DNA from: Pyrinomonadaceae bacterium | GTDB taxonomy: Bacteria; Acidobacteriota; Blastocatellia; Pyrinomonadales; Pyrinomonadaceae | Assembly: GCA_035248565.1 (NCBI GenBank) | Contig: DATFHH010000149.1 | Span: 2,497-66,496 of the forward strand | Length of the DNA: 64,000 bases | Direction: 5' to 3' | Part shown: positions 27,416-64,000 of the stretch, one piece after another | Numbering within the stretch: the stretch's first letter is position 1 | Layout of the letters: each line of letters starts with the position of its first letter | Notes under the pieces: model-generated | Databases searched by the model: none | What the model saw: the letters and a program-made list of their open reading frames with translations, nothing else | Told to the model about the DNA's origin: nothing | Program-made: the position numbers and the translations under genes

Positions 27416-27514
27416 GCGCCTCCTTGGAGTGCGGCGGCTTGACGCCGCTTTGTTATCGATCACGCCCCGATCGAGGCCAAAGCGGCGTCAAGCCGCCGCA
27501 CTCCAAGGAGGTGC
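27416..27514. repeat. Family B element, copy B1 (34-bp perfect arms, 25-nt spacer)
   Basis: CCTCCTTGGAGTGCGGCGGCTTGACGCCGCTTTG (27419-27452), spacer ttatcgatcacgccccgatcgaggc, then CAAAGCGGCGTCAAGCCGCCGCACTCCAAGGAGG (27478-27511). Confidence 0.92.
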
Positions 27515-27597
27515 CTTCTTCTAATGGCAAATGGAAAACCCTTTCGCTATACTCTAGCCCTTTCCCTGGGCTTGGATTTTCCAGAAGGTGGTGAAAT

Positions 27598-29196
27598 ATG
27601 TTTGACGTTTCTCAGAACAGCTCGACGGACCAGGAACGGACCATTCTCCGGAAACTGCGCATCTGGATTGCCGCGCTGGCAGTTGCTTGTTTACTCGCTG
27701 GCATCGGCATCGGCGCGATGTTGTCAGGCCGGTCGACTATAGCGCAGTCTGAAGCGCAGATCGCGCGCGCTCCCGAAGCCTTGTCCGCCTCATTTGCCGA
27801 GATTGCGCGGCGCGTGGAGCCCGCCGTCGTCAACATTGAAACCACCCAGCCCCAGCTGGAAGTCAGCGAAAAGGACGAAGATAAAGAAGATCAGTCGTCG
27901 AACAATCCACTGCTTGACATGTTCCGGCGTCAACAGCGACGGCCCGCGCGCGGAGTCGGCAGCGGTTTTATCGTCAGTCCGAAAGGCTACATCCTGACGA
28001 ACTATCACGTGATCGAGGACGCTGCGCGAATCACAGTCGGTCTGCAATCAGGTGAAAAATATCGCGGCACGGTTGTTGGCTTTGATACTGAAACCGACGT
28101 AGCCGTGATCAAGATCGACACGCCAAAGGATCTTCCGACCGTGACTCTCGGCGATTCGAACGCCGCGCAGGTTGGTGATTGGGTACTCGCGATGGGTTCC
28201 CCGTTTGGTCTCGATCAAACGGTGACGGCGGGAATCATTTCCAAGAAAGAACGCGAGAGTCCGTACTTCAACGTCTTCCAGCGTTTTCTGCAAACTGACG
28301 CCGCCATCAATCGCGGCAACAGTGGTGGACCACTCGTCAACATGCGTGGCGAAGTGATCGGGATGAATTCGCAGATCGCGACTTCGACCGGTGACTACAA
28401 CGGTATCGGCTTCGCCCTGCCGGCCAATGAAACCAATTTCGTCTACAAGCAGTTGATCGCCCAAGGCAAAGTAAAGCGCGGATATCTCGGAATAACTCTC
28501 GACTCCGTGCATGACGAGTTTGCAAAAGTTTATGGTCTGCCCGAAGCGAAGGGCGCGATCATTACTCAGGTTGCGCCGATTGAAAACGGCCAACCCACGC
28601 CCGCAGCGAAAGCTGGTCTTCAAGCAAGCGACATAATCGTAGAGTTTGAAGGCACGCCGATCCTCAATGCACAGGATTTGATTCAGCGCGTTGCCAGTAC
28701 GCCTGTGGGCCAGCAAGTGACGCTGGTTTATCTGCGAGACAACAACGGCAAGATGGAACGGAAGACTGCAACCGTGGCCTTAGGCGAACGGCCTCCGTCA
28801 ACCACGCGCGAATGGGAAGAACCAACAAAAGCGACGCCGAAGACGAGCGATCCCCGCGGCAACGCTCTGCATCTTGGCGTCACACTCGCAGAACTGACTC
28901 CGCAACTGAGAACCGATCGACATCTCACGGACTTGCAGGGTCTTTACGTTAAAGATATCGATCCCAACGGCCTGCTCGCGGAAGTTCGCATTCCACCAAC
29001 AGGCACCCCGGCGTTAAACGAAGGCGACGTCATCAATCGCATCAACCGCACTCCAGTGACTTCACTCGCCGATTTTCAACGTGTGTTGAGTGGATTGAAG
29101 ACAGGCGATCCGATCGTCTTGAACATTACGAGAATTGTGCGAGATGCGAAAGGCGATCGACCGGTCCCGCTGATCGTGCAGTTTACTTATCAATAA
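27598..29196 (+). CDS. htrA: Do/DegP/HtrA family periplasmic serine protease with two PDZ domains
   Basis: TNYHVI (His), DVAVIK (Asp), GNSGGPL (Ser) triad. Two PDZ-like regions. N-terminal TM anchor. Confidence 0.9.
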   Translation: MFDVSQNSSTDQERTILRKLRIWIAALAVACLLAGIGIGAMLSGRSTIAQSEAQIARAPEALSASFAEIARRVEPAVVNIETTQPQLEVSEKDEDKEDQSSNNPLLDMFRRQQRRPARGVGSGFIVSPKGYILTNYHVIEDAARITVGLQSGEKYRGTVVGFDTETDVAVIKIDTPKDLPTVTLGDSNAAQVGDWVLAMGSPFGLDQTVTAGIISKKERESPYFNVFQRFLQTDAAINRGNSGGPLVNMRGEVIGMNSQIATSTGDYNGIGFALPANETNFVYKQLIAQGKVKRGYLGITLDSVHDEFAKVYGLPEAKGAIITQVAPIENGQPTPAAKAGLQASDIIVEFEGTPILNAQDLIQRVASTPVGQQVTLVYLRDNNGKMERKTATVALGERPPSTTREWEEPTKATPKTSDPRGNALHLGVTLAELTPQLRTDRHLTDLQGLYVKDIDPNGLLAEVRIPPTGTPALNEGDVINRINRTPVTSLADFQRVLSGLKTGDPIVLNITRIVRDAKGDRPVPLIVQFTYQ

Positions 29197-29214
29197 GATC
29201 ATTGCCAATAACTT

Positions 29215-30783
29215 ATGTCTCAGGCAAAAAAGGCAATCTCAAAAACCAGCGGGAAAATGGCGGCGCGCAACGCAGCCCGCGCGGCAGTCAAGACTTATCA
29301 AAACTACATCGACGGAAAATGGGTCGGCAGCCAATCAGGTGAGATGTTTGAAAACATCAACCCTGCCGATAACCGCGATGTTGTTGGACGTTTTCCTCTC
29401 TCAACCAGCGACGACGTTAATGCGGCTGTGAATGCCGCGCAAAATGCGTTCGATCGCTGGCGCAACACTCCCGCACCCAAGCGTGCGGAACTGCTGTTTC
29501 GTCTCGGCGAGATCCTGATCCACAACAAAGAACGCTTTACCGCCGACATGACACGCGAAATGGGTAAGGTCTTAAAAGAAGCCGGCGGCGACGTGCAGGA
29601 AGCGATTGACTGCACCTATTACACCGCGGGCGAAGGCCGGCGGCTTCACGGATTTACTTCACCGGCTGAGATGCGCGACAAGTTTGCGATGTGCGTGCGC
29701 CAACCGGTCGGTCTTTGCGGTTTGATTACGCCGTGGAATTTTCCGATGGCGATTCCGTCGTGGAAACTGATTCCAGCATTGATCTGCGGCAACACGGTCG
29801 TCATCAAACCCGCCGAAGACACGCCACTTTCAACCTACAATCTGGTCAAAGCATGCGAAGAAGCCGGCATTCCGCCGGGAGTCGTGAATCTCGTGACCGG
29901 CTATGGTGAAACTGTCGGCGCAGCAATGACCAATCATCCCGCGTTGCGCTTGATCTCATTCACCGGTTCGACTGAAACGGGTCGCATCGTCGCTTCCGCC
30001 TGTGCGGAGCGAAACGCGATCTGTTCGCTCGAGATGGGCGGCAAGAATGCCATCATCGTGATGGACGATGCCGATATTGACTTAGCTGTTGAGGGCGCCA
30101 TTTGGGGCGCCTTTGGTACGTCAGGACAGCGCTGCACTGCGTCGTCGCGGCTGGTGGTCCATAAGAAAGTTTACAAGCAGTTTGTAACGAAGCTGGTTGA
30201 AAACACGAAGGCGCTGCGGGTTGGCGATGGCGCGGATCCGAAGACTGACGTTGGCCCAGTCATAAACGCCGACGCAGTCGAGAAGATCATGGGTTACATC
30301 CGCATCGGACGCGACGATGACGGCGCTAAGCTGGCATGCGGCGGCAAACGACTCTCGCGCGGCGACTATGCCAACGGTCATTTCATCGAACCGACAGTCT
30401 TCGCCGATGCCGCTCCTGACATGCGCGTCTCTCAGGAAGAGATATTTGGACCAGTCACTACTGTCATTCCGGCAAACTCACTCGAAGAAGCGATTCAGAT
30501 CGCCAACGGAGTTCGTTACGGACTCTCGGCTGCCATCTATACGCAAAATGTCAATCGTGCGTTCAAAGCGATGAACGAGATGTACACCGGCATCTTCTAC
30601 GTCAATGCTTCAACCATCGGCGCTGAAGTGCACCTTCCTTTCGGGGGCACCAAAGCGACTGGTAATGGACATCGTGAAGCAGGCACGCAGGTGCTGGACA
30701 TCTTCTCTGAATGGAAGTCTATCTACGTCGACTTCAGTGGCAAGCTGCAACGCGCGCAGATTGATTTAATAGAATCTGCGTAA
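29215..30783 (+). CDS. NAD(P)-dependent aldehyde dehydrogenase family protein
   Basis: [10 protein letters not shown] (catalytic Glu) and [10 protein letters not shown] (catalytic Cys). 522 aa. Substrate not assignable from sequence. Confidence 0.88.
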
Positions 30784-30794
30784 TCTGTGGATGG
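30755..30794. repeat. Family A element, copy A4 (left outer arm missing)
   Basis: CGCAGATT, loop gatttaatag, then AATCTGCGTAATCTGTGGATGG. Encodes the last residues and stops of both convergent genes. Confidence 0.8.
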
Positions 30795-31194
30795 TTTTAA
30801 TCAGTTCTTCCGGCGACACCGGCTTCGCCAGAAACGCATTCACCTGCTCAGATTCGTCAGTCGAATTCTTCGGATCGAGCGCGCTCAACAAGATAATCGG
30901 TAAGTTGGTCAGATGCTGACTACTCCTCACAAAGCGGCACAACCCATACCCATCCAAATTCGGCATCAGCGCATCGGTAACTATCACGTCGACGCGCGCG
31001 GTCAGTAAAACTCTCATCGCCTCCAGACCATCGCCGGCAGAAATGACGTCGTAGCCGGCACGCTGAAGCACCACTTCGAGATAACGTCTGAGCGCAGGAT
31101 CGTCCTCGACCAACAAGACACACGGGCGCTGCTCGGGTGATTGTGCCGAGTGCAATCCATTGCCGGGTCTTTCCAGTTTATTCGATACGATCAT
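30766..31194 (-). CDS. stand-alone response regulator receiver (CheY-like)
   Basis: [11 protein letters not shown], ..[13 protein letters not shown].., ..LSAL.., AFLAKP receiver motifs. ATG 31194 preferred (ORF open to 31293). Confidence 0.75.
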
Positions 31195-31344: not shown

Positions 31345-33282
31345 TCAGTCGATAAAGGTGCGGTGCCAGAGCTCAAGCCCGAGGAGCTGAAAAACCTGCA
31401 AATTGTAGTCTTCACGGCCCGAAAAATTAGCTTCCAGCACCCGTTTGACGGCATTCGGACGGAAGATGCCGCGCCGCCTCACAGACTCCTCAGAGAGCAG
31501 ATCGTTAATCAACGGACGCAGAGGCCCGCGCAGCCAGGAGCGAATCGGCGCGCCGAAACCAGCCTTCTTTCGCCAAACCACGTCCTTGGGCAGCATGGTT
31601 TCCATGGCCCGCTTAAAGATGTACTTGCGCTTCAGTCCGCGCAGTTTCAATCGCGGCGGCATACGTGCCGCCATCTCGATCATCTCGCGATTGAGAAACG
31701 GCACTCGCACTTCGAGATTGGCGGCCATCGACGTCTTGTCAGTCGTCATCAGGTTTAGACAAGGCAGAAAAGTCTTTAAATCGACGTAAAGAAGTTGATT
31801 CAAAGGCGCCGCGTTCGTCACGCTCGCGAAGTAAAGGCGATGAGTCGAGTAAGGATCATAGTCGTGCGTGAGGGCGCGCCACTCATCTGAATACAGTCGC
31901 TGCTTCATCTCGTTCGTGAAGTAAGTGCCATAACCGAGATAACGATCTTCAAAGTCGAGCGCGGCACTGCGAGCAAACTTCTTCGCGTTGCGAAGCGGCG
32001 CAGTTAGTTTCCCTGGCAATCCGCCCGGCAACGCACCCGCAACTGTCTTCATCAACGGCCGTCGCAGCAGTTGCGGCACTGGATCGAATGCCGACGCAAT
32101 TTGCATCGCCATCTGGCGCGGATAGCCGGCAAACACTTCATCGCCTCCCATGCCCGAAAGCATCACCGTCAGAGTCTCACGTGCGACATGGGAAATGAGA
32201 TAACTCGGAATCGCCATGTCGATCGGCGGCTCTTCCATGTGATAGACCAGCTTCGGCAGCAGATCGGCGACCGATGGTTTCAACATGATCTCGTGATAGT
32301 CAGTCTGCAACTGCTCGTTGACGCGCCTGGCCCAACGCACGTCGTCGGGAATGATGTCATAACGCAGATCTTCGCTCTCGATGCCGACGGTGTACGTGCT
32401 GATTCGCTGGCCGTTGCTGTGGCGTTCCATCATCGCGACGATACCGGAAGAGTCGATGCCGCCTGAGAGAAACGATCCGAGTGGAACGTCGGCGACCATC
32501 TCCCTCTTTACGACGCGATCGAAAGTGTCGAGCACACGCTCGCGCCACCATGCCTCGTTCTTGCCTTCTTCGATCGTGTCGAATGAAACGTCCCACCATT
32601 GTTTCAGCGTCAGTTCGTCATGATGAAACTGAAGCAAGTGGGCCGGAGGCACAGTCTTCACGTTCGCAAACAACGTATTTGGATCCGGCGACCAGAGGAA
32701 CGTTAGAAACTGATGCAGCGCTTCGGGATTCAACTCAGGCTTCACTAAACCTGTTGCGAGGATTGCTTTGATTTCTGAGCCGAAGACAAACGTTGCGGAG
32801 GCATCGTCGCGGGCGGGAATGAACGTGTAGTAAAGCGGCTTAATGCCGACGTGATCGCGGACCAGCGTCAACATGCGTTGGTGGTTGTCCCAGACGGCGA
32901 AAGCAAACATGCCGTTGAGATGAGTTATCGCATCCCAGCTCCACTCCGAGACCGCCGCAAGCAAGACTTCGGCATCTGAATCGGTGCGGAAGTTATGGTC
33001 CAGGGTTTTTAATTGTTCGCGGAGTTCGCGATAGTTGTAGATCTCGCCGTTGAAAATGAGGACGTAACGGCCGTCGGCCGAGAGCATGGGTTCGTGACCC
33101 GCAGGACTCGTGTCGATGATCGCGAGCCGGCGATGGCCCAAACAGGCGCGCCGATTGTTTGAATCGATCGGCTCTGAAACCCAAACACCTTGATCGTCTC
33201 GACCGCGATGCTCCACACTCGCGAGCATCGGACCAATAAACTTCACCGGTTCGATGCCGACAATTCCTGCAATACCACACAT
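31345..33282 (-). CDS. asparagine synthase (glutamine-hydrolysing) family amidotransferase, paralog 1
   Basis: MCGIAGI Ntn-Cys start, GATase-II domain, PP-loop SFLSGGIDSS. Confidence 0.88.
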   Translation of the reverse strand: MCGIAGIVGIEPVKFIGPMLASVEHRGRDDQGVWVSEPIDSNNRRACLGHRRLAIIDTSPAGHEPMLSADGRYVLIFNGEIYNYRELREQLKTLDHNFRTDSDAEVLLAAVSEWSWDAITHLNGMFAFAVWDNHQRMLTLVRDHVGIKPLYYTFIPARDDASATFVFGSEIKAILATGLVKPELNPEALHQFLTFLWSPDPNTLFANVKTVPPAHLLQFHHDELTLKQWWDVSFDTIEEGKNEAWWRERVLDTFDRVVKREMVADVPLGSFLSGGIDSSGIVAMMERHSNGQRISTYTVGIESEDLRYDIIPDDVRWARRVNEQLQTDYHEIMLKPSVADLLPKLVYHMEEPPIDMAIPSYLISHVARETLTVMLSGMGGDEVFAGYPRQMAMQIASAFDPVPQLLRRPLMKTVAGALPGGLPGKLTAPLRNAKKFARSAALDFEDRYLGYGTYFTNEMKQRLYSDEWRALTHDYDPYSTHRLYFASVTNAAPLNQLLYVDLKTFLPCLNLMTTDKTSMAANLEVRVPFLNREMIEMAARMPPRLKLRGLKRKYIFKRAMETMLPKDVVWRKKAGFGAPIRSWLRGPLRPLINDLLSEESVRRRGIFRPNAVKRVLEANFSGREDYNLQVFQLLGLELWHRTFID

Positions 33283-33303
33283 AATCTGTGTAATCTGTGG
33301 ATG
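33283..33303. repeat. Family A half element, copy A5
   Basis: AATCTGTGTAATCTGTGGATG, exactly fills the gap between the oxidoreductase stop (33306) and the asnB-like ATG (33282). Confidence 0.75.
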
Positions 33304-35461: not shown

Positions 35462-35495
35462 TTATCCGCGTTCATCCGCGGTCATCCGCGGCTAA
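35462..35495. repeat. Family C element, copy C5 (three words)
   Basis: TTATCCGCGTTCATCCGCGGTCATCCGCGGCTAA. Contains the glycosyltransferase stop (35472). Confidence 0.9.
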
Positions 35496-36668
35496 AACTC
35501 TTTGGATCAACTCACTAACCCACTCCGCGCGCGCGTCCCACGTGCCCGAAGCGACCGCCGCCTGTCGTCGCGCGGCCGCGTTCGCATCCGTGTCATGAAG
35601 GGCTTCATCGACTAACCGAATAAAGTCATCTCGCGTGCGGGCGATCCTGAGAATGTCGCGCATCGGTTCGTACTCCGGCAACGGCGAGATGACGACTGGC
35701 TTTCCCGTCGCGAGGTACTCCCGAACTTTAATCGCCGAGCCGTAACTCGTAAAAGACTGCTCAGTTTCCCACGGCAACACGCAAACGTCGAATCCCGCAG
35801 CGTAAGACGGAAGATCGTTATAAGCAACGGGTGGCAGAAAATGAACATTCGGTAAGGCCTCAATGTCGAGACCACGCGAGCGATTGCCGATAAATATCCA
35901 TTGCCACTCAGGACGCTCCTGAGAGGCGCGCTTGATTAATTCCTGGTCCACCAACCACGGCTCAATCGCTCCAAAGTAACCCAAACGAGGTCGCGGCAGC
36001 CTCATGATCTCAGGCGCTACAGCTCTTTCTGCGACACGTCGCCAGTGTTCAAAATCAACACCTTGCTCGAGTAAATGCGATCGTTCACATCCGCGCGTCG
36101 CTTCCGTAAAAAGTTTTCGACCCGAATAGAAAATCAGATCCGCGGCGTCGATGGCGCCTTCGTGAAGCTTGCGTATCAATGCCGGATCCGTAGCATGATC
36201 CATCGTGTTTGCATCATACTTGTCTGAGACTTGATAGACCACCATCGATTCATCGAGCGTGCCGATCATATCGGCAGCGGTGGGAATAGCGATCCACAGA
36301 ATCGGCTTTTTCAGACCACGGCTCCGCGCGAGACGTTTGATTTGCGCTCCGATCAAACGCCGGTTCATCGTTCGCGCTGCTGCCGTGCCGAAAAAAGGTA
36401 AACTGGCGGGCGAGACAACGGTGATACCTTCGTCTGTTTGTCGCGCGAGTTTGGAATAACTGCCGAGCTTGCGCTTGATTCGCGGCAGCAGATCTTTGTG
36501 CGCCAGACCAGGGAGACCCATCGAGATGGAGTTGACGAAGATCACTTTGTTTCCGGCGCGCGCAAACTTGCGCATCAGGTGTGCCTTGGAGTGCGGGTGG
36601 TGATACCACCAGTCTTCTCCACCAAAACAGATTATCGATTGGTCGCGCAGCATTCGATCCGTAAGCAT
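35472..36668 (-). CDS. glycosyltransferase (GT1/GT4-like, TuaH-like N-terminus)
   Basis: IICFGGEDWWYHHPHSKAHL.. N-terminus and C-terminal GT-B region (..REYLATGKPVVISPL..). ATG 36668 lies in repeat C6. Confidence 0.72.
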   Translation of the reverse strand: MLTDRMLRDQSIICFGGEDWWYHHPHSKAHLMRKFARAGNKVIFVNSISMGLPGLAHKDLLPRIKRKLGSYSKLARQTDEGITVVSPASLPFFGTAAARTMNRRLIGAQIKRLARSRGLKKPILWIAIPTAADMIGTLDESMVVYQVSDKYDANTMDHATDPALIRKLHEGAIDAADLIFYSGRKLFTEATRGCERSHLLEQGVDFEHWRRVAERAVAPEIMRLPRPRLGYFGAIEPWLVDQELIKRASQERPEWQWIFIGNRSRGLDIEALPNVHFLPPVAYNDLPSYAAGFDVCVLPWETEQSFTSYGSAIKVREYLATGKPVVISPLPEYEPMRDILRIARTRDDFIRLVDEALHDTDANAAARRQAAVASGTWDARAEWVSELIQRVLAADDRG

Positions 36669-36687
36669 CCACGTTAATCCGCGGCCC
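36666..36687. repeat. Family C element, copy C6
   Basis: CATCCACGTTAATCCGCGGCCC. Holds the methyltransferase stop (36674) and the glycosyltransferase ATG (36668). Confidence 0.7.
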
Positions 36688-37459
36688 TGACTTTCGCGAC
36701 ACACAATCCCGATACCCCAAACGGCAGGTTCATATATCGCAAAACCCAACTCTCCGCCCCAAACAGTCTCCCCAGAATTCCGTTGAGCGCCGGCGCATTG
36801 ATGTTGTTCTCACTCGACGTTCGGATCCCGGTTAACTGCATCAACTTTCTCACCATCAGAATCGGCAGAAAGAACGTGATGTTCGCGTAGGTCATGCGCT
36901 CAACTTCAAACCCAGCCTGTTCGAGCACGCGGCGCAGTTGTGGTAGACGATAGCGCCGGCGGTGATTGCTGACTTCATCCTGCACGCCCCATAAAAACAT
37001 GAACGTCGGCACAAACAGCAACACTCGTCCGCCCGGTCGCAACACTCGTCGCATCTCACTCAAGCCCGCCAGATCGTCGTCCATGTGTTCGACGACATCA
37101 AACGCCGTCACTAAGTCAAACGTGGCGTCCTCGTAAGGAAGTTCTTCGCCTGCGCCGAGCCGTACTTTGTCGAGTCCGCGTTCTCGACAGAACGCCAGCG
37201 CGTCCTCTGACACGTCGACGCCTTCCGCGTCTCCATACTTCGAAAGCAAAAGCAGATTCGCGCCGGTGCCGCAGCCTACGTCGAGAATACGCGGACGTCG
37301 ATCCGTTACACGACGACAGATATCTTCGAGGAAGCTGGCGATGATCTTTCGTCTGCCGGTGTACCACCAATGCGACTGCTCCACGCGAAAGAGAATCGGG
37401 TACGTGTGCTCCATCATCTCGCGGGGGAGCGGATTTGCGATATCGGAACGTAATTTCAT
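36674..37459 (-). CDS. class I SAM-dependent methyltransferase
   Basis: Motif I ILDVGCGTGANL. Post-I and motif II are consistent (DLVTAFDVVEH). Confidence 0.85.
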   Translation of the reverse strand: MKLRSDIANPLPREMMEHTYPILFRVEQSHWWYTGRRKIIASFLEDICRRVTDRRPRILDVGCGTGANLLLLSKYGDAEGVDVSEDALAFCRERGLDKVRLGAGEELPYEDATFDLVTAFDVVEHMDDDLAGLSEMRRVLRPGGRVLLFVPTFMFLWGVQDEVSNHRRRYRLPQLRRVLEQAGFEVERMTYANITFFLPILMVRKLMQLTGIRTSSENNINAPALNGILGRLFGAESWVLRYMNLPFGVSGLCVAKVRAAD

Positions 37460-37465: not shown

Positions 37466-37489
37466 TTAGCCGCGGATGACGCGGATTAA
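37466..37489. repeat. Family C element, copy C7 (opposite orientation to C5)
   Basis: TTAGCCGCGGATGACGCGGATTAA. Encodes ..IRVIRG* of the upstream membrane protein. Confidence 0.9.
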
Positions 37490-38830
37490 GCCGTTGACAC
37501 CAGCGCCCGCGAAAACAATTAACAAGGCGTGCATCGGTAGCACGTAGCGAATCTCAGTGTGCGCGGCTGTGCCTGGAACTAGATAGTAAAGTACGGTCAA
37601 GAGCAACAAACAAGTCAACCTCCAATTCGTTCGCGCCGCGACGTAAATTCCAAAGGCAGCCAACGGTAAGAACAGATAACGCACAACACTCTGAATCATA
37701 CCGAGCAAATTCACGGCCGCGGCGAGCACTCCGCCCTGCCACTGCGGCGACAAGCATTTCCTGCTCGTCACGTTGATGCCACTCGTTCCACAATACGGCA
37801 CCGGATCGCCGCCGCCGACTTTCAGCATGCCCCACATCCGGCCGGCCATCACGCCGATATACCAGATCTTATGTTGCCAAATAAATGCCATCGCTTCACG
37901 CGTTCGTTCGCGGTCGCGGCGAATTCCGTCAGGCCATTGCGGGTCGAGTGGAACGCCGGGCGGCAAGTTCATCTTCACGCGCTCGCGTTCGACCATCTTG
38001 TCATCTCCGAAAATGAATCCACCGCTTCTGCCCAATTCTGTTTCGCCAAGACCTTCCCACAAATTCACGCCGATCGTTCCACCGGTCGGAGTGAAATCAG
38101 GAAAGACGAAGTAGTTGCGTATAACTATCGGCGCGATCGTGACGAATGTTCCGAGTACAACTGCACCACTGAGTTTTAGTTTGCTTCGCCACGTCGTTTG
38201 CACAAAAACGAGCAGCCCGATGGCCCATGCGAAACATAAAAACAACGGATTCACCCGCAGCCAGCAAGCGATGCCGAGCGTCACGCCCGCCGCCAATGCG
38301 AGCCACACCTTCCTTCGTTGTGCGGCGAGCAGCAACAGCCAGTTGCCACCAAGCACAAACCACGTCGTCGGCATATCAGCCGACGGATAAGCCGCATACA
38401 ACGCAAATAGTGGTGACAGCGCAACCAAAAAACCACTCGCGATTGCGACGCGCCAACCGAATACACTAGCGGCGATTCCTCCGATCAAAAACAACGAAAG
38501 AATCAGATCGGCAAACCACAATACGATCTGAACTGAATAAGCTGAACGTTCGCCGGAGAGCTTGTAGATCAGCGCCACCAACGCGGGAAACGCCGGCGGA
38601 TATTGAACGAGGTCAGTGCGAGTAGGATCGTCGATCCAAAAGAGCTTTTGCCGGCCGTCGAGAATATCGCGTGCTTGTCGATCGAATTTTGCGTAAGAGC
38701 CAACTTGAAACCAACCTGGATCGTTGAGGTGCGCACGCATGAAATGCAGCGTGAGGACACGCACGCTAATCATGATTAGCAGCAACGTAAGGAGAGCTCC
38801 GGATGAACGCGGATGAAGGCGAATCGTCAT
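37466..38830 (-). CDS. polytopic membrane protein, GT-C/GT39-like glycosyltransferase or polymerase candidate
   Basis: 454 aa with more than 10 predicted TM helices and a periplasmic loop after TM1 (YAKFDRQARDILDG..FWIDDPTR). ATGA overlap with the upstream methyltransferase stop. Confidence 0.6.
   Translation of the reverse strand: MTIRLHPRSSGALLTLLLIMISVRVLTLHFMRAHLNDPGWFQVGSYAKFDRQARDILDGRQKLFWIDDPTRTDLVQYPPAFPALVALIYKLSGERSAYSVQIVLWFADLILSLFLIGGIAASVFGWRVAIASGFLVALSPLFALYAAYPSADMPTTWFVLGGNWLLLLAAQRRKVWLALAAGVTLGIACWLRVNPLFLCFAWAIGLLVFVQTTWRSKLKLSGAVVLGTFVTIAPIVIRNYFVFPDFTPTGGTIGVNLWEGLGETELGRSGGFIFGDDKMVERERVKMNLPPGVPLDPQWPDGIRRDRERTREAMAFIWQHKIWYIGVMAGRMWGMLKVGGGDPVPYCGTSGINVTSRKCLSPQWQGGVLAAAVNLLGMIQSVVRYLFLPLAAFGIYVAARTNWRLTCLLLLTVLYYLVPGTAAHTEIRYVLPMHALLIVFAGAGVNGLIRVIRG
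38799..38819. repeat. Family C words inside coding sequence, copy C8
   Basis: CCGGATGAACGCGGATGAAGG. Its complement encodes residues LHPRSSG (5-11) of the membrane protein. Confidence 0.6.
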
Positions 38831-47598: not shown

Positions 47599-47627
47599 GC
47601 CACAGATGACGCGGATGAAGACAGATT
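47599..47627. repeat. Family A/C hybrid three-word element, copy C10
   Basis: GCCACAGATGACGCGGATGAAGACAGATT, between the dehydrogenase stop (47629) and the wecB ATG (47586). Confidence 0.75.
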
Positions 47628-48967: not shown

Positions 48968-49030
48968 CCATCCACAGATTACGCAGATTATACATTACAC
49001 AGATCTGTGAAATCTGTGTAATCTGTGGAT
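48968..49030. repeat. Family A element, copy A7 (nested/composite)
   Basis: CCATCCACAGATTACGCAGATT (48968-48989), then an inner ATTACACAGATCTGTGA with 12-nt palindrome CACAGATCTGTG (48998-49009), then AATCTGTGTAATCTGTGGAT (49011-49030). Sits in a divergent intergenic region. Confidence 0.9.
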
Positions 49031-49034: not shown

Positions 49035-50552
49035 ATGAGCCGGGAACCCCCCAAACTCGTCCGTGGCCTGAGCCTGCTGGACGCAACGATGATCGTCGTG
49101 GGCTCGATGATCGGTTCCGGCATCTTTATCACCTCGGCGGAATCATCGCGGCTGGTGGGCTCACCTGGCTGGCTAATCGCAGCCTGGGCTCTCGGCGGCG
49201 TGCTCACGATCACCGGCGCACTGTGTTGTGCGGAGCTGGCAGCGATGTGGCCGCGCGCCGGCGGCCAATACGTCTTTCTGCGAGAAGCTTATGGTCCATC
49301 GGTCGGATTTCTCTTCGGCTGGGGCCTGTTTCTGATTATTCAATCAGGCACCATTGCGGCGGTCGCGGTCGCTTTTGCGAATTTCACTGGCGCGCTCACT
49401 GATTTGATCTCAGCCGAACGTTATCTCATTCCACCACTCGTACTGATAAAACCATTCACGATCGGCCAACTCTCATTCAATGGTTACGCGTTGAGTCTGT
49501 CAACCCAGCAACTTCTCGCAGTTGTAATGATTCTCTTTCTCACTATTATCAACACACGCGGACTGCAAACCGGCAAGATTATTCAGAACACATTTACTTT
49601 TACAAAAACCGCCGCGCTGGTCGGATTGATTTTGATCGGACTGATTCTCGGCTGGAATCACGGCAGTGCGGCTTACACGTCGTCGTGGTGGCAACCGTGG
49701 CAGAACGGTTGGAGACCTTCCGCATCGGAGGTTTGGTTTAATCCGGCGGGCCAGGGTCTGCTCGTTCTGGCGCTCTTGATGTTGCTTGGCCGCGCGATGG
49801 TTGGGCCACTCTTCGCGCAATCCGCCTGGAACAACGTGACGTTCACGGCCGGCGAAGTGCGAGAGCCCGGTAAGAACTTACCGCGCGCGTTGTTGCTCGG
49901 TTGTGGTCTGGTAGTGACTTTGTATCTGCTGGCGAACCTGGCTTACGTCGTGACGCTGCCCTTAGCGGGCATTCAGAACGCGCCGCAGAATCGAGTTGCG
50001 ACAGCGGTGATGCAAGCAGTGCTTGGCCCAAGCGGCGCCATCATCATGGCGATCGCGATCATGATCTCCACATTTGGTTGTAATAATGGACTGATACTCG
50101 CCGGCGCGCGTGTTTACTTTGCCATGGCGAGAGATGGGCTCTTCTTCAAACGAGTGGACAGCGTAAACAAGCATCATGTGCCGGCCGTGGCACTGATTGC
50201 ACAGGGCGTGTGGGCGGCGTTTCTGGTGCTTCCTCGCACCGTAACGAGCAATCGACAGACAGGCGCGTACACCTTTGGCAACGTTTACACGCAGTTGCTG
50301 GAGTACATCGTTTCGGCGGATCTGATCTTTTACGTGTTGATGGTGGGAGCGGTGATAGTGATGCGCCGCAAAGCGCCGGAGATTGAGCGGCCGTATCGAA
50401 CGTTTGGATATCCGATCGTGCCGCTGATTTATCTCTTGATTGCGGGATTGTTTATTGTTGATTTAGCGGTGCTGGCGCCGTCCACGTCGGGGATTGGGTA
50501 TTTGCTGGTGGCTACAGGCGTTCCGATCTATTTCGTTTGGAGCCGCGGATAA
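49035..50552 (+). CDS. APC superfamily amino acid permease
   Basis: 505 aa with about 12 TM helices. N-terminal GSMIGSGIF signature of amino acid/polyamine/organocation transporters. Confidence 0.85.
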   Translation: MSREPPKLVRGLSLLDATMIVVGSMIGSGIFITSAESSRLVGSPGWLIAAWALGGVLTITGALCCAELAAMWPRAGGQYVFLREAYGPSVGFLFGWGLFLIIQSGTIAAVAVAFANFTGALTDLISAERYLIPPLVLIKPFTIGQLSFNGYALSLSTQQLLAVVMILFLTIINTRGLQTGKIIQNTFTFTKTAALVGLILIGLILGWNHGSAAYTSSWWQPWQNGWRPSASEVWFNPAGQGLLVLALLMLLGRAMVGPLFAQSAWNNVTFTAGEVREPGKNLPRALLLGCGLVVTLYLLANLAYVVTLPLAGIQNAPQNRVATAVMQAVLGPSGAIIMAIAIMISTFGCNNGLILAGARVYFAMARDGLFFKRVDSVNKHHVPAVALIAQGVWAAFLVLPRTVTSNRQTGAYTFGNVYTQLLEYIVSADLIFYVLMVGAVIVMRRKAPEIERPYRTFGYPIVPLIYLLIAGLFIVDLAVLAPSTSGIGYLLVATGVPIYFVWSRG

Positions 50553-50572
50553 ACGCGGATGACGCGGATTAT
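50541..50572. repeat. Family C element, copy C11 (three words)
   Basis: AGCCGCGGATAAACGCGGATGACGCGGATTAT. Holds both convergent stops (permease TAA 50550-50552, polymerase TAA 50569-50571 on the minus strand). An inverted word TCATCCGCGA follows at 50582-50591. Confidence 0.88.
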
Positions 50573-52344
50573 TTTACCCATTCATCCGCGATTTCAGTTT
50601 CGACTTTAATGGGCACCGTCTTCAGGTATTCCTGGCCCGCGGCGCACATCAGGCGTTCGACTTTTTCAGCAACTGCCTGCGCTTCATCAGCATCCGTCTC
50701 GACGACAATCTCATCATGAATGATGTTCACGATCTGTGCGTTCGTATCGCTTAATTCTTCTTTCAACAACTTGAGCGCGCGTTTCAGGATGTCAGCACTT
50801 GTGCCTTGAATCGGCGTGTTCTTCCCGTTGCGTTGCGTCATCGAGATCTGTTGTCGATCATTTTCGTCGTAACGAAAGCGCACCAGACGTCCCGAGGCCG
50901 TGCGCGCCTGCCGCTCACTGACTGCGCGGTTCGCCGCGTCGCGCAAGTAAGCATCCAGTTGCCGATACGTCGCAAAATAGCGGCGCAACACGTTCTCAGC
51001 ATCTGGCACGCTCAAGCCAGTCATCATCGCAAAGCGTTGCGCGCCGATGCCATAAACCACACCGAAGTTCAATCGCTTTGCAAAATCACGCTGCTCTTTT
51101 GTGACCTGGTCCAGCGAAGCGTTGAAGACCTGCGCGGCCGTCACACGATGAAGATCCGCGCCGGAATTGAAAGCCTCCATGAAACCGCGATCGCCGGAAA
51201 ACTCCGCCAGGATTCGCAACTCGATCTGCGAATAGTCGGCGATGATCAACTTTCGTCCTTCCGGATAACCACTGAAACATCGCCGGTATTCGATCGTGTG
51301 CGGCACCTGCTGAATATTCGGATTCGTGCAGGCGAACCGGCCGGTTGGCGCGCCGATTTGGCGGAAGTCGGCATGCAGTCGCTTCGTCATGGGATTGATC
51401 ATCTCGATCATGTTCTCGCCGTAACTCGTGAGCGCCTTCTGCACAGTGCGATACTCGAGCAACGTTCCGATGATCGGATATTCCGCCGCGAGTGGCTGGA
51501 GTTTCCAGTTGCGCGTCGATTCAGGGACCGGAATGCCGAGGCGGGTCAGTGCTTTAGTCAACTGCTGCTGCGAATCAAGGTTGATGTCTTCGCGCTGTGG
51601 TCCACCAAACAACGAACCTTGCGACGATTCTTCCGCCAGCACTTCCTGCAACTGTTCGGCAAGCTCGCGCCGCCGTTTTTCGACAATGCTCAACTGCTCG
51701 AGCCAGCGGTCCTTGTGCATGTAAAAGCCAGCCAACTCGATGTCGACCACCGGCATCACGCATTCAAATTCGAGTTGCGCACACCTCACCAGGGACTCGG
51801 CTTTTAGTCTCTCGATCAACTTCTCACGCAGCGGCAGCAGGATGGCGGCGTCGCGCGCGGCGTATTCCAGTTGGGCTTCAGACAACTCGAAATTCCAGTC
51901 GCTCAAACGTTCGGTTTTGTCGACAGATTGATTTAGATAACGACTGGCGACTGTTTCGAGCCCGTGGCGTTCTTCGATGTCGCCCGCGCCGACGAGTTGA
52001 CTTGCCAGCAACGTATCGAACAGTCCACCAAGATCGACGCCGAGATTGTGCTTGATGAATTTCGCGTCGAACTTTGCGTTGTGCGCGATCTTGATTGGGC
52101 GTGGAGCAGCGAGGAGTCGTCGCAGTGGCGCGAGTGCTTCGCTCTTCGCTGCGTCGCCGTTGCTGAAGTGATCGAAGTCGAAGATGAAAACGCAATCAGG
52201 CCCGGCGAGTTGGAGTAGTCGCAATCGCGAGGTAAATGGATCGAGTTCGGTGGTTTCGGTGTCGAGCCCCACGACGGGTTGGGTCGTGAGGGTTTCAATT
52301 GCTTTCCGAACTTCTTCGGCAGTTTTGATTATTTGATAATTCAT
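50569..52344 (-). CDS. family A DNA polymerase, Klenow-like (3'-5' exonuclease + polymerase, no 5' nuclease domain)
   Basis: Exo I VGLDTETT, Exo II AHNAKFD, Exo III YAARDA. Pol motif A DYSQIELR, motif B RDFAKRLNFGVVYG, motif C HDE. 591 aa. Confidence 0.88.
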   Translation of the reverse strand: MNYQIIKTAEEVRKAIETLTTQPVVGLDTETTELDPFTSRLRLLQLAGPDCVFIFDFDHFSNGDAAKSEALAPLRRLLAAPRPIKIAHNAKFDAKFIKHNLGVDLGGLFDTLLASQLVGAGDIEERHGLETVASRYLNQSVDKTERLSDWNFELSEAQLEYAARDAAILLPLREKLIERLKAESLVRCAQLEFECVMPVVDIELAGFYMHKDRWLEQLSIVEKRRRELAEQLQEVLAEESSQGSLFGGPQREDINLDSQQQLTKALTRLGIPVPESTRNWKLQPLAAEYPIIGTLLEYRTVQKALTSYGENMIEMINPMTKRLHADFRQIGAPTGRFACTNPNIQQVPHTIEYRRCFSGYPEGRKLIIADYSQIELRILAEFSGDRGFMEAFNSGADLHRVTAAQVFNASLDQVTKEQRDFAKRLNFGVVYGIGAQRFAMMTGLSVPDAENVLRRYFATYRQLDAYLRDAANRAVSERQARTASGRLVRFRYDENDRQQISMTQRNGKNTPIQGTSADILKRALKLLKEELSDTNAQIVNIIHDEIVVETDADEAQAVAEKVERLMCAAGQEYLKTVPIKVETEIADEWVK

Positions 52345-52349
52345 ATAAA

Positions 52350-52399
52350 GCCATCCACAGATTACACAGATTAATCAATCTGCGTAATCTGCGGATGGC
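52350..52399. repeat. Family A palindromic element, copy A8
   Basis: GCCATCCACAGATTACACAGATT, aatc, then AATCTGCGTAATCTGCGGATGGC (two A/G differences between arms). Contains the MFS stop (52375). Confidence 0.9.
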
Positions 52400-53583
52400 T
52401 TCACAAAGATCAACAGCAGCACGGCAGCAGTTGCACCCATAACTGCGCTGACCAGAAACGCCGTTGTCGGTCCTTTCCAATCCCAAATCATACCCATCAA
52501 CAGCGAAGCAGGAAACACCGTGATACCGAAAGCAAGATTGTACAAGCCATACGCGGTGCCGCGTTGTTCCGGACGCACAAGATCCGCCACCAACGCCTTC
52601 TCAGCGCCCTCCGCCAACCCAAAGTAAAGACCGTAAATCAAAAACAGAATCCACAGCGACGCTTTGCTCGTCGCAAAGGCAAATCCGGCGTAAACAGCCG
52701 CGTACAATGCCCATCCCGAAACGATCAAACTCTTGCGTCCAAACCGATCTGAAAGATCTCCACCAAACAGCGAACTCAGAACTTTGCTGCCATGATGAGC
52801 GGCCCAAAGCAACGGCACCATCGCGGTCGACACTCCTGTGTTCGTCGCCCGCAAGATGAGAAAACTGTCAGATGAGTTTGAAAGGGTGAACAGCGCAAGC
52901 ACAAGCAGAAAGCGTTTGAAGTTGTTGTCAAAACCACGCAGCGTGAATCTCGGAATCTCCGCTCCTCGTGGCGCTTGCACCGGCGACTCGCGCATGAAAA
53001 AGATCGCGACTAACACTGCCATGAATGCCGGCACTGACGCGATGAGGAATATCCGTGTGAACTCACCCGCAGTCGGAAAGCCGTAGTTAGCAACGAATAG
53101 AACGACAAGTAAGTAGCCGATAAGTGGTCCAATAACCGCGCCCGCGTGGTCCATCGCACGATGAAAACCAAACGCGAGTCCGCGTTGCGAGATGTTGACT
53201 GTGTCGGCGATCATCGCATCACGCGGGGCTGTCCGCACTCCCTTACCGACGCGATCGGTCAGCCGGATCGCAAGCACCTGTGTCCACGATTGAGCAAACG
53301 CTAAAAGAGGACGCGCAATCGATGCGAGCGAGTAACCGGCGACGACCAGCAGCTTTCGTTTTGCAAGCCGATCGCTGAGATAACCGGCAAATAGTTTCAG
53401 CAGACTTGATATCGACTCGGCGAGTCCCTCGATGATCCCGATCGCTCTAGCTGAAGCGCCCAGAGTCATCGTGAGAAAGACGGGCAGCAGCGGATAAATG
53501 ATCTCGCTCGAGGCGTCGTTGAGCAGGCTAACCAGACCAATCGCGACTACGTTTCGTGGAAGACTGCGATACCGGCCCCACAA
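52375..53583 (-). CDS. MFS transporter
   Basis: About 12 TM helices and an MFS loop motif (DRLAKRK). The ORF is open to ATG 53694, but that would overlap queF by ~100 nt. A TTG at 53583 is proposed, so the start is uncertain. Confidence 0.72.
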   Translation of the reverse strand: MWGRYRSLPRNVVAIGLVSLLNDASSEIIYPLLPVFLTMTLGASARAIGIIEGLAESISSLLKLFAGYLSDRLAKRKLLVVAGYSLASIARPLLAFAQSWTQVLAIRLTDRVGKGVRTAPRDAMIADTVNISQRGLAFGFHRAMDHAGAVIGPLIGYLLVVLFVANYGFPTAGEFTRIFLIASVPAFMAVLVAIFFMRESPVQAPRGAEIPRFTLRGFDNNFKRFLLVLALFTLSNSSDSFLILRATNTGVSTAMVPLLWAAHHGSKVLSSLFGGDLSDRFGRKSLIVSGWALYAAVYAGFAFATSKASLWILFLIYGLYFGLAEGAEKALVADLVRPEQRGTAYGLYNLAFGITVFPASLLMGMIWDWKGPTTAFLVSAVMGATAAVLLLIFVKPSADYAD

Positions 53584-54000: not shown

Positions 54001-54098
54001 GCGCCTCCTTGGAGTGCGGCGGCCTGGCGCCGCTTTGGCCTCGATCAAGCGCCATCGATAACAAAGCGGCGTCAAGCCGCCGCACTCCAAGGAGGCGC
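54001..54098. repeat. Family B element, copy B3 (inverted orientation relative to B1/B2)
   Basis: GCGCCTCCTTGGAGTGCGGCGGCCTGGCGCCGCTTTG (54001-54037), 24-nt spacer (reverse complement resembles the B1 spacer), then CAAAGCGGCGTCAAGCCGCCGCACTCCAAGGAGGCGC (54062-54098). A single CCATCCGCACA word lies just outside at 53986-53996. Confidence 0.92.
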
Positions 54099-61300: not shown

Positions 61301-61391
61301 GGAGATGTGGCCGAGTGGCTGAAGGCGGCGGTTTGCTAAACCGTTAAGGGTCAAAAGCCCTTCACAGGTTCGAATCCTGTCATCTCCGCCA
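61301..61391 (+). tRNA. tRNA-Ser (anticodon GCU), class II with long variable arm, CCA encoded
   Basis: Acceptor GGAGATG/CATCTCC. Anticodon stem GCGGT/ACCGT with loop TTGCTAA. Variable arm AAGGG..CCCTT. T-arm ACAGG-TTCGAAT-CCTGT. G discriminator plus CCA. Confidence 0.9.
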
Positions 61392-61396: not shown

Positions 61397-61495
61397 CCAC
61401 CAAAAAAAAGCACAAAAAGCTCGAATGATTTTCAGGTGGATCTTTTTCGCCTTTTGTGCTTTTTTGTGGCTTGAAGTTTGTGCCTCTTTGTGGCC
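61397..61495. repeat. Family D composite, copy D5 (inverted repeat plus extra half copy)
   Basis: CCACCAAAAAAAAGCACAAAAAGC (61397-61420), then GCCTTTTGTGCTTTTTTGTGGC (61449-61470), plus GTTTGTGCCTCTTTGTGGCC (61476-61495). Ends 1 nt before the gltX ATG. Confidence 0.8.
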
Positions 61496-62990: not shown

Positions 62991-63012
62991 CCATCCAGAG
63001 ATTACGCAGATT
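62991..63012. repeat. Family A half element, copy A9
   Basis: CCATCCAGAGATTACGCAGATT (one substitution in the outer word). No inverted partner. Starts 3 nt after the gltX stop. Confidence 0.7.
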
Positions 63013-63024
63013 AGGGGGCTGTTA

Positions 63025-63654
63025 ATGATGAAGGTGATTATTTTTTTACTAATGTGTGGCGTTGTCTTGGCCCAGAATTCAAATTCATCAAGCACACCGC
63101 CAAGCCGCCAACGAACCACAAATACAAACCGCGCGACGCCGACTCCAACGCCCACTCCACAGCCCACACCGAAGAGGCCCGCGGCTGCACCGCAAGAAGT
63201 ACCTGGCTCCGACGCCGTGCTCGCCGCGTTCAATAGTCTGCTCGATGGCATCCGGCACGCGAACGTCAACGAAGTAATGTCTGCTTACTGGAATTCTCCA
63301 CGTCTGAGTCTTTTCAACTACAACGGCAGTGTGACGAAAGGTTGGGAGCAGGTGCGCAACAACCGCCAGAGCTCGTATCCCGAGATCAAAGACGTGAAGC
63401 TCGACGTGCGCGATGTTTCAGTCACCATGCTCGGACGAGACGGCGCTGTCGTTACTTGCCAGTGGACACAGTCACAAAACTACAAAGGCACGCCTGAAAC
63501 GGTGACCGGCCGCATGACATTGGTTTTCAAACGATTCGGCACAGCCTGGAAAGCTATTCATTTGCACTCTTCGCCCGATAATCCGAATCCGGCAGTCATT
63601 CCGCCGTCGGAACAGCGACCATCTCCGTCTCCGTCGCCTTCGCCCACACCTTGA
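63025..63654 (+). CDS. secreted SnoaL-like/DUF4440-like (NTF2 fold) protein with Pro/Thr-rich linker
   Basis: Signal peptide MMKVIIFLLMCGVVLAQ. ..AYWNSPRLSLFNYNGSVTKGWEQV..VTCQWTQ..GRMTLVFKRFGTAWKAIHLHSS resembles NTF2-like DUF4440 proteins (from memory). Confidence 0.6.
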   Translation: MMKVIIFLLMCGVVLAQNSNSSSTPPSRQRTTNTNRATPTPTPTPQPTPKRPAAAPQEVPGSDAVLAAFNSLLDGIRHANVNEVMSAYWNSPRLSLFNYNGSVTKGWEQVRNNRQSSYPEIKDVKLDVRDVSVTMLGRDGAVVTCQWTQSQNYKGTPETVTGRMTLVFKRFGTAWKAIHLHSSPDNPNPAVIPPSEQRPSPSPSPSPTP

Positions 63655-64000
63655 TAGGTGAGCACCTCCTTGGAGTGCGCCGACTTGTCGGCGCTTTGGC
63701 CAAAGCGGTGCCAAGGCACCGCACTCCAAAGAGGAGCCTTGATCGTCGACGCGCCCGCGCCGGCGAGAATGATCAAGAACGGAAAGATCTCGACCGCATA
63801 ACGCGGTTCGGGATTTTCGAGCGTCGCGAAGAAACCGAGCCGCAAGAAGATCAGCAGCACCGCGAGCAGCAACCATCTTCTTGCGTTGGGATCTCTTGAA
63901 CGCCAGAGCAACCAACCACCAAGCACCCCCAACAAAGAGTAGAGCCCAGTCAACCCGGCAAACAGCGGCAGCCAATACTGCTGATGAATGTCATAGTCGA
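63558..64000 (-). CDS. C-terminal part of a polytopic membrane protein (5' end outside window); annotated stop probably an artefact of read-through into repeat B4
   Basis: Frame is open from the window edge (..DYDIHQQYWLPLFAGLTGLYSLLGVLGGWLLW..EPRYAVEIFPFLIILAGAGAS). After ~63736 the frame runs through repeat B4 and overlaps the convergent gene by ~100 nt before the stop at 63558. Confidence 0.5.
   Translation of the reverse strand, partial: DYDIHQQYWLPLFAGLTGLYSLLGVLGGWLLWRSRDPNARRWLLLAVLLIFLRLGFFATLENPEPRYAVEIFPFLIILAGAGASTIKAPLWSAVPWHRFGQSADKSAHSKEVLTYQGVGEGDGDGDGRCSDGGMTAGFGLSGEECK
63665..63734. repeat. Family B element, copy B4 (no spacer, diverged arm interiors)
   Basis: CCTCCTTGGAGTGCGCCGACTTGTCGGCGCTTTGG (63665-63699) directly followed by CCAAAGCGGTGCCAAGGCACCGCACTCCAAAGAGG (63700-63734). 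Confidence 0.88.

Follow-up and report, generated by a model that had tools for sequence, protein, structure and literature searches.

Compensatory changes in tagged hairpins of a Pyrinomonadaceae genome point to REP doublets associated with RAYT transposases

Four inverted repeats behind genes

The window analysed here is a stretch of 64,000 nucleotides (nt) from Pyrinomonadaceae bacterium (GCA_035248565.1, contig DATFHH010000149.1, positions 2,497-66,496 of the forward strand), and our subject is a family of four intergenic inverted repeats within it, B1 to B4 (Family B; Table 1). Each copy lies 3' of a gene and begins about 10 nt or less from the upstream stop codon, and B1-B3 also stand directly upstream of the next gene. 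A sequence-only reading had placed all four copies at 3' gene ends, and Pfam matches of the flanking open reading frames (ORFs) show these genes to be real. We posit that Family B very probably consists of repetitive extragenic palindromic (REP) sequences arranged as inverted doublets (REPINs), that is, of mobile repeats associated with a REP-associated tyrosine transposase (RAYT).

The 12-mer CCTCCTTGGAGT, allowing at most one mismatch, occurs eight times in the window in the form of four inverted pairs, while shuffled sequences lead one to expect 0.13; the four inverted palindromes noticed earlier are thus recovered where they had been placed. Likewise, the pattern GCGGCG-N6-CGCCGC is matched six times compared to 1.1 times in shuffles, and all six matches are arms of B1-B3. 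Every element has the same layout. The outer stem ends in TTGGAGT and leads into a GC-rich arm of 18 nt that is self-complementary; TTT(G), a centre 2-26 nt long and (C)AAA come next, followed by another self-complementary arm of 18 nt and by ACTCCAA. In total, the window holds eight units of about 29 nt in four intergenic doublets, all of them able to form a long hairpin of the REPIN type, and neither extra copies nor solo units were found in it beyond B1-B4.

In general the arms take the form of a 7-bp stem with a 4-nt loop. In B1-B3 the seventh pair is mismatched (G.A or A.G), and for this reason these arms read as 6 bp plus 6 nt. The arms of B1 match each other perfectly over at least 34 bp and are framed by a lineage-specific outer extension (GCGCCTCCTT / AAGGAGGTGC). 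This perfect match and the self-complementarity of every arm, both claimed before, are borne out by reading the sequence and by the repeat search. B3 is a hybrid, as had been proposed, with a left arm of the B2 type, a right arm identical to the right arm of B1, and a centre that is the reverse complement of the B1 centre. B3 had been described as inverted relative to B1 and B2; the inversion against B1 stands for the centre. With respect to transcription, B2 is opposite to B1 and B3. In B4 (GCGCCGACTTGTCGGCGC / GCGGTGCCAAGGCACCGC) each arm forms a perfect stem of 7-8 bp although the two arms are not complementary to each other at 6 of 18 positions; the preserved stems had been seen correctly, while the count over the interior is 6 of 12 and not 6 of 13.

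Compensatory changes within and between arms

Pairing was compared in an alignment (A2) of 76 distinct doublets from many genomes, which were chosen by the anchors GGAGT-N18-TTT ... AAA-N18-ACTCC with no pairing criterion, and from which the spacers were cut out so that all rows had equal length. Within the arms, 93.2% of the cells pair (shuffle mean 75.2%), double changes affect 11 of the 14 pairs and amount to 174 cells, and the covariation score reaches 0.452 compared to 0.129 in shuffles. Between the arms, the same columns pair in 80.5% of the cells (shuffle mean 76.2%), with double changes at 8 of the 14 pairs, 98 double-change cells and a covariation score of 0.236. None of 500 shuffles matched any of the intra-arm measures, a count that is not a probability because the aligned sequences are relatives, and every slid register gave far lower scores. 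At pairs 4 and 5, where the stems vary, the bases are unpaired between the arms in 35-41 of the 76 doublets, but within the arms in only 0-4. The seventh pair is exceptional: in 21-30 of the 76 doublets it forms a G.A-type mismatch inside the arm, yet across the arms it mostly pairs.

Two further comparisons gave the same order. With arms fixed at 18 nt, intra-arm pairing was 0.735 and inter-arm pairing 0.636 (0.767 and 0.575 in the RAYT-derived set described below), a comparison that has no length control, is blurred by arms of 17-20 nt and is superseded by A2. After filtering for hairpins, the values were 95.9% within and 76.7% between arms, and 76 doublets favoured intra-arm pairing while 9 favoured inter-arm pairing. 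The proposal that arm-internal hairpins are kept by compensatory change, and kept better than the arm-to-arm match, is therefore supported; the 76 doublets of A2 showed neither uncompensated change as the rule within arms nor better conservation between them. Because intra-arm pairing is kept, whereas arm-to-arm pairing fails at variable positions in about half of the doublets, the conserved entity is, judging from the alignment, the single hairpin together with the tag TTGGAGT on its 5' side and TTT on its 3' side.

The tagged hairpin in other genomes

A scan of one representative genome per species with the pattern TTGGAGTGCG-N10-16-CGCTTT matched at least 119 loci (L001-L119). The source taxa among the matches listed are Acidobacteriota (Pyrinomonadaceae, Blastocatellia, Terriglobia, Thermoanaerobaculia), Verrucomicrobiota, Planctomycetota, Lentisphaerota (including Victivallis vadensis), Kiritimatiellia, Sumerlaeota, Hydrogenedentota, Armatimonadota, Chloroflexota and a few others. 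This distribution agrees with an earlier, tentative mention of similar ECGGL and PHSK peptides in Verrucomicrobia, Planctomycetes and Acidobacteria.

What recurs in these genomes is not the palindrome of about 100 nt, but a single tagged hairpin consisting of 5'-TTGGAGT, 18 nt of GC-rich hairpin and TTT-3'. Solo units are about as common as inverted pairs (roughly half of 485 units lie outside doublets), and larger elements at times carry extra untagged hairpins. GGAGT is directly followed by a hairpin of at least 6 bp in 20% of its 2094 occurrences, compared to about 1.2% for permuted anchors. The tag is strongly conserved as TTGGAGT(GC), and its internal GTGC departs from the canonical GT[AG]G at position 4. 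The modal unit has a 7-bp stem and a 4-nt loop, most commonly CTTG, and its family-wide T run is only 3 nt long, TTT being followed by G or C. Stem sequence varies considerably: among 147 distinct 18-nt hairpins, pair 4 is GC in 93, CG in 40 and AT in 9, and pair 5 is CG in 69, TA in 35, AT in 19 and GC in 14. The related loci contain 120 doublets (109 distinct) with a bimodal spacer length. Most are heterodimers, with at least one arm-to-arm mismatch in 87 of 102 doublets of the hairpin-filtered set and a mode of 4-6 mismatches. Separately, the scan pattern was also met in 115 stretches of IMG/VR viral contigs (L209-L288 and more).

Association with RAYT genes

Searching the 119 loci with E. 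coli RayT by tblastn gave one weak match, in locus L118 (Ca. Hydrogenedens sp., WGMK01000022). The ORF found there encodes 185 amino acids (aa), matches the NCBIfam model NF047646 'REP-associated tyrosine transposase' (REP_Tyr_transpos; E 2e-22, 79.6 bits) as well as Pfam Y1_Tnp (21.9 bits), and is positioned exactly between two copies of a doublet of this family of about 185 nt. It has 470 homologues at E <= 1e-5, several of which are named REP-associated tyrosine transposase; the named ones come from Sumerlaeia, Anaerolineae/Chloroflexi, Hydrogenedentes, Thermoanaerobaculaceae and Akkermansiaceae. A second query, from locus L143, recovered 2250 homologues among clustered proteins at E <= 1e-20, including Armatimonadota, Planctomycetota, Pontiella and Lentisphaeria. 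The phyla with RAYT homologues are the same phyla that carry the repeat. In an alignment of 28 homologues the N-H-x-H and Y...N residues are invariant, the profile matches a single Protein Data Bank entry, 4ER8 (E. coli TnpArep; E 1e-8), in an alignment that covers the HUH and Y..NP motifs, and hhalign of the clade against E. coli RayT gave a probability of 95%.

The association is also seen from the side of the protein. In 80 metagenome loci collected through the RAYT protein alone, the tag 8-mer GGAGTGCG or its complement is present in 74 and lies on both sides of the gene in 61, typically 10-200 nt from the gene ends. It occurs 272 times in these 216 kb, whereas permuted 8-mers reach 7.9 on average and 26 at most. 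The RAYT genes of two named metagenome-assembled genomes (MAGs), L207 (Thermoanaerobaculaceae) and L208 (Akkermansiaceae), are flanked in the same way. In L143, the RAYT gene lies between two REPIN copies, and the right arm of this REPIN, GCGGCGTCAAGCCGCCGC, is identical to the right arm of B1 in our window. As an additional observation, the MAG to which L118 belongs by name (GC168_ locus tags) holds two RAYT homologues, P0001 and P0047, which are 54% identical, so one genome may harbour more than one RAYT of this clade, as far as these sequences indicate.

These loci bear on another possible origin, in which Family B would be either a miniature inverted-repeat transposable element (MITE) that depends on a DDE transposase for its movement, or a palindrome-associated element belonging to an active insertion sequence of the IS200/IS605 type. 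Such an origin would account for the inverted-repeat architecture and for the presence/absence polymorphism described below. However, no target-site duplication was found at the four copies, where the palindrome instead runs on for 2-3 nt into the flanks; the associated protein fits the REP-associated tyrosine transposase model better than the generic Y1_Tnp model (79.6 compared to 21.9 bits); no TnpB partner was found in the examined loci; and the RAYT gene is itself flanked by short units. We regard this origin as extremely unlikely.

Insertion of B2 into a gene junction

B2 covers the last 12 or so codons of the UDP-GlcNAc 2-epimerase gene, whose product ends in ...SLECGGLAPL*. A Pyrinomonadaceae MAG encodes a protein with 100% identity to the epimerase of the window. 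Four relatives, with epimerases 89-95% identical to it, keep the order UDP-glucose dehydrogenase, epimerase, heparinase, and in all four the epimerase stop codon overlaps the heparinase start codon (TGATG). At this junction the window has about 110 extra bases, within which B2 lies. The epimerase is 379 aa long in the window, 369-377 aa in the four relatives and 365-369 aa in most of the listed homologues. Since the four syntenic relatives do not have these bases at the overlapping stop/start junction, B2 is, on the comparison of these sequences, a sporadic insertion and not a conserved regulatory element of the operon. Between B2 and the heparinase start codon lie 22 bases that are absent from the relatives and contain a partial copy of the REP tag, TGGAGTGT, which may be left over from an older unit or mark the footprint of the insertion.

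The position of the elements just past stop codons raises the question of whether they are intrinsic terminators or stabilisers of mRNA 3' ends that were selected by the host, act bidirectionally in doublets and were spread by recombination instead of by a transposase. In B1-B3, TTTGTTAT or TTTAATAT comes directly after the arm on the side of the upstream gene, and a permissive terminator scan flagged these arms. Moreover, the REP elements of E. coli and the bacterial interspersed mosaic elements (BIMEs) that they form are known to act as terminators and as stabilisers of mRNA 3' ends. Yet the T run is only 3 nt long across the family, the conservation of the 5' tag across phyla would be left unexplained, and both the RAYT association and the insertion of B2 at a formerly overlapping stop and start point to a mobile origin. 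As the primary explanation we therefore consider termination very unlikely; as a secondary function, it is possible and compatible with the REP/REPIN reading.

Table 1. Features discussed in the text. Positions refer to the window, except for the last row, which refers to locus L118.
Feature	Position	Strand	Description
B1	27416-27514	+	REPIN-like doublet
B1 left REP unit	27426-27430; 27431-27448; 27449-27451		GGAGT; hairpin; TTT
B1 spacer	27456-27461 paired with 27469-27474		weak central hairpin
B1 right REP unit	27479-27481; 27482-27499; 27500-27504		AAA; hairpin; ACTCC
B1 neighbours	stop 27410; start 27598		zinc-dependent alcohol dehydrogenase (zinc-ADH) gene; HtrA-like protease gene
B2	46387-46484	+	REPIN-like doublet
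B2 hairpins	46402-46419; 46452-46469
B2 tags	46397-46401; 46470-46474		GGAGT; ACTCC
B2 neighbours	stop 46447-46449	-	UDP-GlcNAc 2-epimerase gene; other neighbour, heparinase II/III gene
Extra bases next to B2	46365-46389		22 bases between B2 and the heparinase start codon
TGGAGTGT	46370-46377	+	partial REP-tag copy within these bases
B3	54001-54098	-	REPIN-like doublet
B3 hairpins	54016-54033; 54066-54083
B3 tags	54011-54015; 54084-54088
B3 neighbours	stop 54099; start 53971		rhomboid gene (3' end); QueF gene
B4	63662-63737	.	short heterodimer
B4 hairpins	63677-63694; 63705-63722		GCGCCGACTTGTCGGCGC; GCGGTGCCAAGGCACCGC
B4 tags	63672-63676; 63723-63727
B4 neighbour	stop 63654		SnoaL-like gene
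Second palindrome family	7978-8031; 9898-9950; 13328-13378; 30755-30799; 33274-33302; 42515-42555; 48970-49030; 52348-52401; 62985-63013		copies; 52351-52398 flagged as terminator-like
Third repeat family	5286-5315; 19042-19065; 21194-21217; 22804-22827; 35464-35499; 36657-36692; 37467-37490; 44492-44515; 47597-47620; 50550-50573; 57291-57326		copies, both orientations (D9, D10, D17, D18)
A/T-rich palindromes	23991-24079; 61400-61469		CACAAAAAG.../...CTTTTTGTG
tRNA-Ser(GCT)	61301-61391		directly before the second A/T-rich palindrome
Paralogous stretches	12067-12706; 15453-16092		probable tandem paralogous genes (D1, D8)
L118 RAYT ORF	4498-5055	-	185 aa, NF047646

Folding, outer stem and central hairpin

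The covariation within the arms had been taken to imply a dedicated branched structure, a folded RNA or an extruded cruciform, set apart from copy-paste repeats. In the form of a structured RNA, cis-regulatory or small, Family B would be selected at the RNA level as a four-way junction made up of the outer stem, the hairpins of both arms and a central stem. This idea draws on the strong covariation of the arm stems, on the position of every copy 3' of a gene, on the fold of B4 and on a central third hairpin that recurs in part of the family. According to RNAfold, B4 alone is branched into two arm hairpins (-44 to -47 kcal/mol), while B1-B3 each fold as a single long hairpin on both strands (-84 to -92 kcal/mol). 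When 149 full doublets were folded with their spacers, 122 had a long arm-to-arm hairpin as the minimum-energy form, 15 were branched and 12 mixed. This speaks against branching as the general minimum-energy form, but thermodynamic folding cannot settle which structure forms on transiently single-stranded DNA.

The outer stem of 12 bp, described earlier as a conserved structural part, does not hold up across the family: beyond TTT/AAA it is weakly paired (63% compared to a shuffle mean of 57%), with 36-58% at the five outer pairs. The outer extension seen in the window, CCTCC.../...GGAGG, is lineage-specific and recurs in several Pyrinomonadaceae loci. The short central stem fares partly better. 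Among spacers of 20-40 nt, 42% fold at -8 kcal/mol or below compared to 17% of shuffles, which confirms a third hairpin in a subset of related elements but limits it to some 40% of spacers. It is marked in some lineages, for example as CTGGGAGACATGTCTCCCAG flanked by GCGCGGACATGTCCGCGC and GCGGCGACATGTCGCCGC; in the window the centres are weak (-5 to -7 kcal/mol), and B4 is without a central spacer hairpin (TTTGGCCAAA). In one sub-lineage (RAYT flanks in L138, L146, L164, L185, L186, L196 and L197) we further observed that the REPINs are consistently heterodimers with arms GCGGCGAC-ATGT-GTCGCCGC and GCGCGGAC-ATGT-GTCCGCGC and an untagged third hairpin between them. This third hairpin shares the GACATGTC apex, and all three stems covary between the loci.

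Against a structured RNA stand several observations. The units occur solo as often as in doublets, the long hairpin is the minimum-energy fold of B1-B3 and of the 122 doublets mentioned above, orientation relative to transcription is variable (B2 is opposite to B1 and B3), B2 is missing from close syntenic relatives, and the same units flank transposase genes. Rfam has no family for the elements: at gathering threshold the window yielded only a tRNA-Ser, and the only matches of an E-value scan at B1 were to generic hairpin models of miRNA precursors, with scores around half of the respective thresholds. We therefore give an RNA-level role little credence as the origin of the family. A tRNA-like cloverleaf was also considered and rejected, as ARAGORN calls only the tRNA-Ser in the window. 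The compensatory changes are real, but they are ordinary for the REP/REPIN class; the elements are very probably mobile repeats and do not represent a novel type of RNA or DNA structure.

Comparison with known REP systems

REPs are short tagged palindromes. Two of them joined in inverted orientation make up a REPIN, which forms a hairpin and is presumed to be mobilised by the RAYT whose gene it flanks (PMC3116915, PMC3337134). Together with the tagged-hairpin anatomy, the stem covariation, the RAYT flanking and the insertion polymorphism of B2, this precedent underlies our identification. The resemblance to REP/BIME elements and TnpArep (RayT, 4ER8) of E. coli is close: in both systems the palindromes are short, imperfect and rich in GC, carry a conserved unpaired tag on their 5' side and lie in intergenic DNA behind genes, either solo or as inverted pairs, and in both the repeats flank a cognate single-copy HUH/Y1 gene. 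They differ in host range, since the present family is found in Acidobacteriota, Planctomycetes-Verrucomicrobia-Chlamydiae (PVC) phyla, Chloroflexota and others and not in Enterobacteria, in the tag, which is TTGGAGT(GC) here and GTAG in E. coli, and in the HUH motif, which is NHYH here and EHMH in E. coli. Quentin et al. (2018, PMC6006769) give W94, Q95, E100, H101 and R104 of E. coli TnpArep as GTAG-contact residues. When we carry this numbering onto the clade alignment, W-Q...E-H of E. coli (IWQPRFWEH) aligns with a clade consensus of W-F...D-T, and we infer that the different tag goes with different residues opposite the E. coli tag-contact positions.

The REPINs of Pseudomonas fluorescens likewise consist of inverted REPs and a spacer that form a long hairpin, and flank a RAYT gene; there, it is presumably the doublet that replicates, and singlets are what remains of it (Bertels and Rainey, 2011, PMC3116915). 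Ours differ in being mostly heterodimers, in their bimodal spacer, often with a third hairpin, and in having their tag in many phyla. REPs have been described as forming subfamilies with alternative complementary stems, as occurring in homo- and in heterodimers, and as extending ORFs (Di Nocera et al., 2013, PMC3733652). This GTAG-tagged superfamily shares with Family B the stem-loops with a terminal unpaired tag, the alternative complementary stems, the head-to-head and tail-to-tail dimers, its presence in PVC phyla and Chloroflexi, and occasional ORF extension, but GGAGT/GTGC falls outside its degenerate tags GYAG, GYRG, GTRG, GTMG and GTGG (PMC3733652), and our unit sequence was not found in the available portion of its supplementary text. 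In IS200/IS605 elements such as IS608, a Y1 HUH enzyme also acts on imperfect hairpins with an adjacent guide or tag on single-stranded DNA, and the two ends carry different hairpins. Unlike there, no transposase lies inside the repeated element here and no TnpB is present in the examined loci, and the enzyme gene is single-copy-like and flanked by short repeats.

A REP of this family appears in a supplementary table (Table S1) under the genome code 'CaurA01', which we take to stand for Chloroflexus aurantiacus. There, GG[AC]GTGCGGCAGCCATGCTGCCG is tabulated as REPs beside the subclass 2.2 TnpArep gene ABY36092.1 of 'CaurA01', and the sequence is grouped with REPs whose foot reads 'GGAGTG' (Quentin et al., 2018, PMC6006769). 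The REP associated with ABY36092.1, GGAGTGCGGCAGCCATGCTGCCG (PMC6006769), has the same tag and hairpin as the Sumerlaeota loci L042 and L056 and belongs to the same family as the window units; it is an entry for a single genome, and its kinship with our family is drawn from the repeat sequence. The cross-phylum spread, the non-canonical tag and the mostly heterodimeric doublets are not described in the searched portions of the REP/RAYT papers and supplementary text, and a literature search with sequence strings gave unrelated primer matches only. As far as these sources go, the kind of element is known, its REP type has been tabulated once before (Chloroflexus), and the present family is a new member.

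Several points weigh against identifying Family B as REPs. No credible RAYT gene was found by tblastn in the 64-kb window, so that the cognate enzyme is known from related genomes only, and none of the named RAYT homologues listed, including the 120 listed for the L143 query, comes from Pyrinomonadaceae. The L118 protein falls 0.4 bit short of the NCBIfam equivalog cut-off of 80, and the tag GGAGT(GC) is not the canonical GT[AG]G. Conservation in L001-L119 is partly due to ascertainment at the three basal pairs and at TTT, which the scan pattern demanded (GCG...CGC and TTT); the RAYT-derived locus set is free of this bias. Finally, cleavage, mobility and the single-stranded substrate are carried over from E. 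coli TnpArep.

A possible mechanism

Most plausibly, by analogy with E. coli TnpArep and the REP/RAYT literature, the hairpins are conserved because the transposase recognises hairpin and tag on single-stranded DNA. A domesticated single-copy HUH/Y1 tyrosine transposase would bind the hairpin with its 5' tag, and would nick and rejoin DNA at the unit, leading to the spread and upkeep of units in intergenic DNA. The need for recognition would keep each arm stem paired through compensatory change while the stem sequence drifts, and the complementarity between arms would be a by-product of the kinship of the two units. Behind a gene, the inserted hairpin with its T stretch may in addition terminate transcription weakly or stabilise the mRNA end, as is the case for REPs in E. 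coli.

A bolder version of the REP/REPIN reading combines two proposals. Firstly, the branched form could be the working form, with heterodimers selected to destabilise the long hairpin and to present two different tagged hairpins next to each other on single-stranded DNA, often with a third hairpin of the GACATGTC type in between, to a RAYT dimer, in a manner like that in which IS608 TnpA binds the distinct hairpins of its left and right ends. Secondly, a single REPIN-RAYT lineage with a fixed GGAGTGCGG tag could have persisted or spread across roughly ten phyla. Taken together, we consider this version unlikely, if clearly less so than the alternatives weighed above.

Other repeats in the window

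The window contains further repeats. A second family of intergenic palindromes (ATCCACAGATTACGCAGATT ... AATCTGCGTAATCTGTGGAT) has at least nine copies with arms of 20-25 nt, one of them flagged as terminator-like; it is presumably the Family A of the sequence-only reading and looks like another REP-like family with a different tag. A third family of short repeats consists of (T)CATCCGCG...ATCCGCGGCT units in both orientations. Two A/T-rich palindromes were also found, one of them directly after the tRNA-Ser(GCT) gene. A pair of stretches spaced by 3386 nt shares 73-76% identity over lengths of 114 and 300 nt; these are, by their sequence, probably tandem paralogous genes.

Implications

To our knowledge, work on REPIN-RAYT systems has centred mainly on Proteobacteria, and these systems are usually portrayed as lineage-restricted and vertically inherited. 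The family described here brings in a large clade of RAYTs (over 2000 clustered proteins at E <= 1e-20) with a non-canonical tag and mainly heterodimeric doublets in many poorly studied phyla. Its repeats explain the very common spurious small ORFs and altered C-termini (ECGGL..., ...PHSK) in soil Acidobacteriota, Verrucomicrobiota, Planctomycetota and others, for which TTGGAGT followed by an 18-nt hairpin and TTT provides a simple masking signature.

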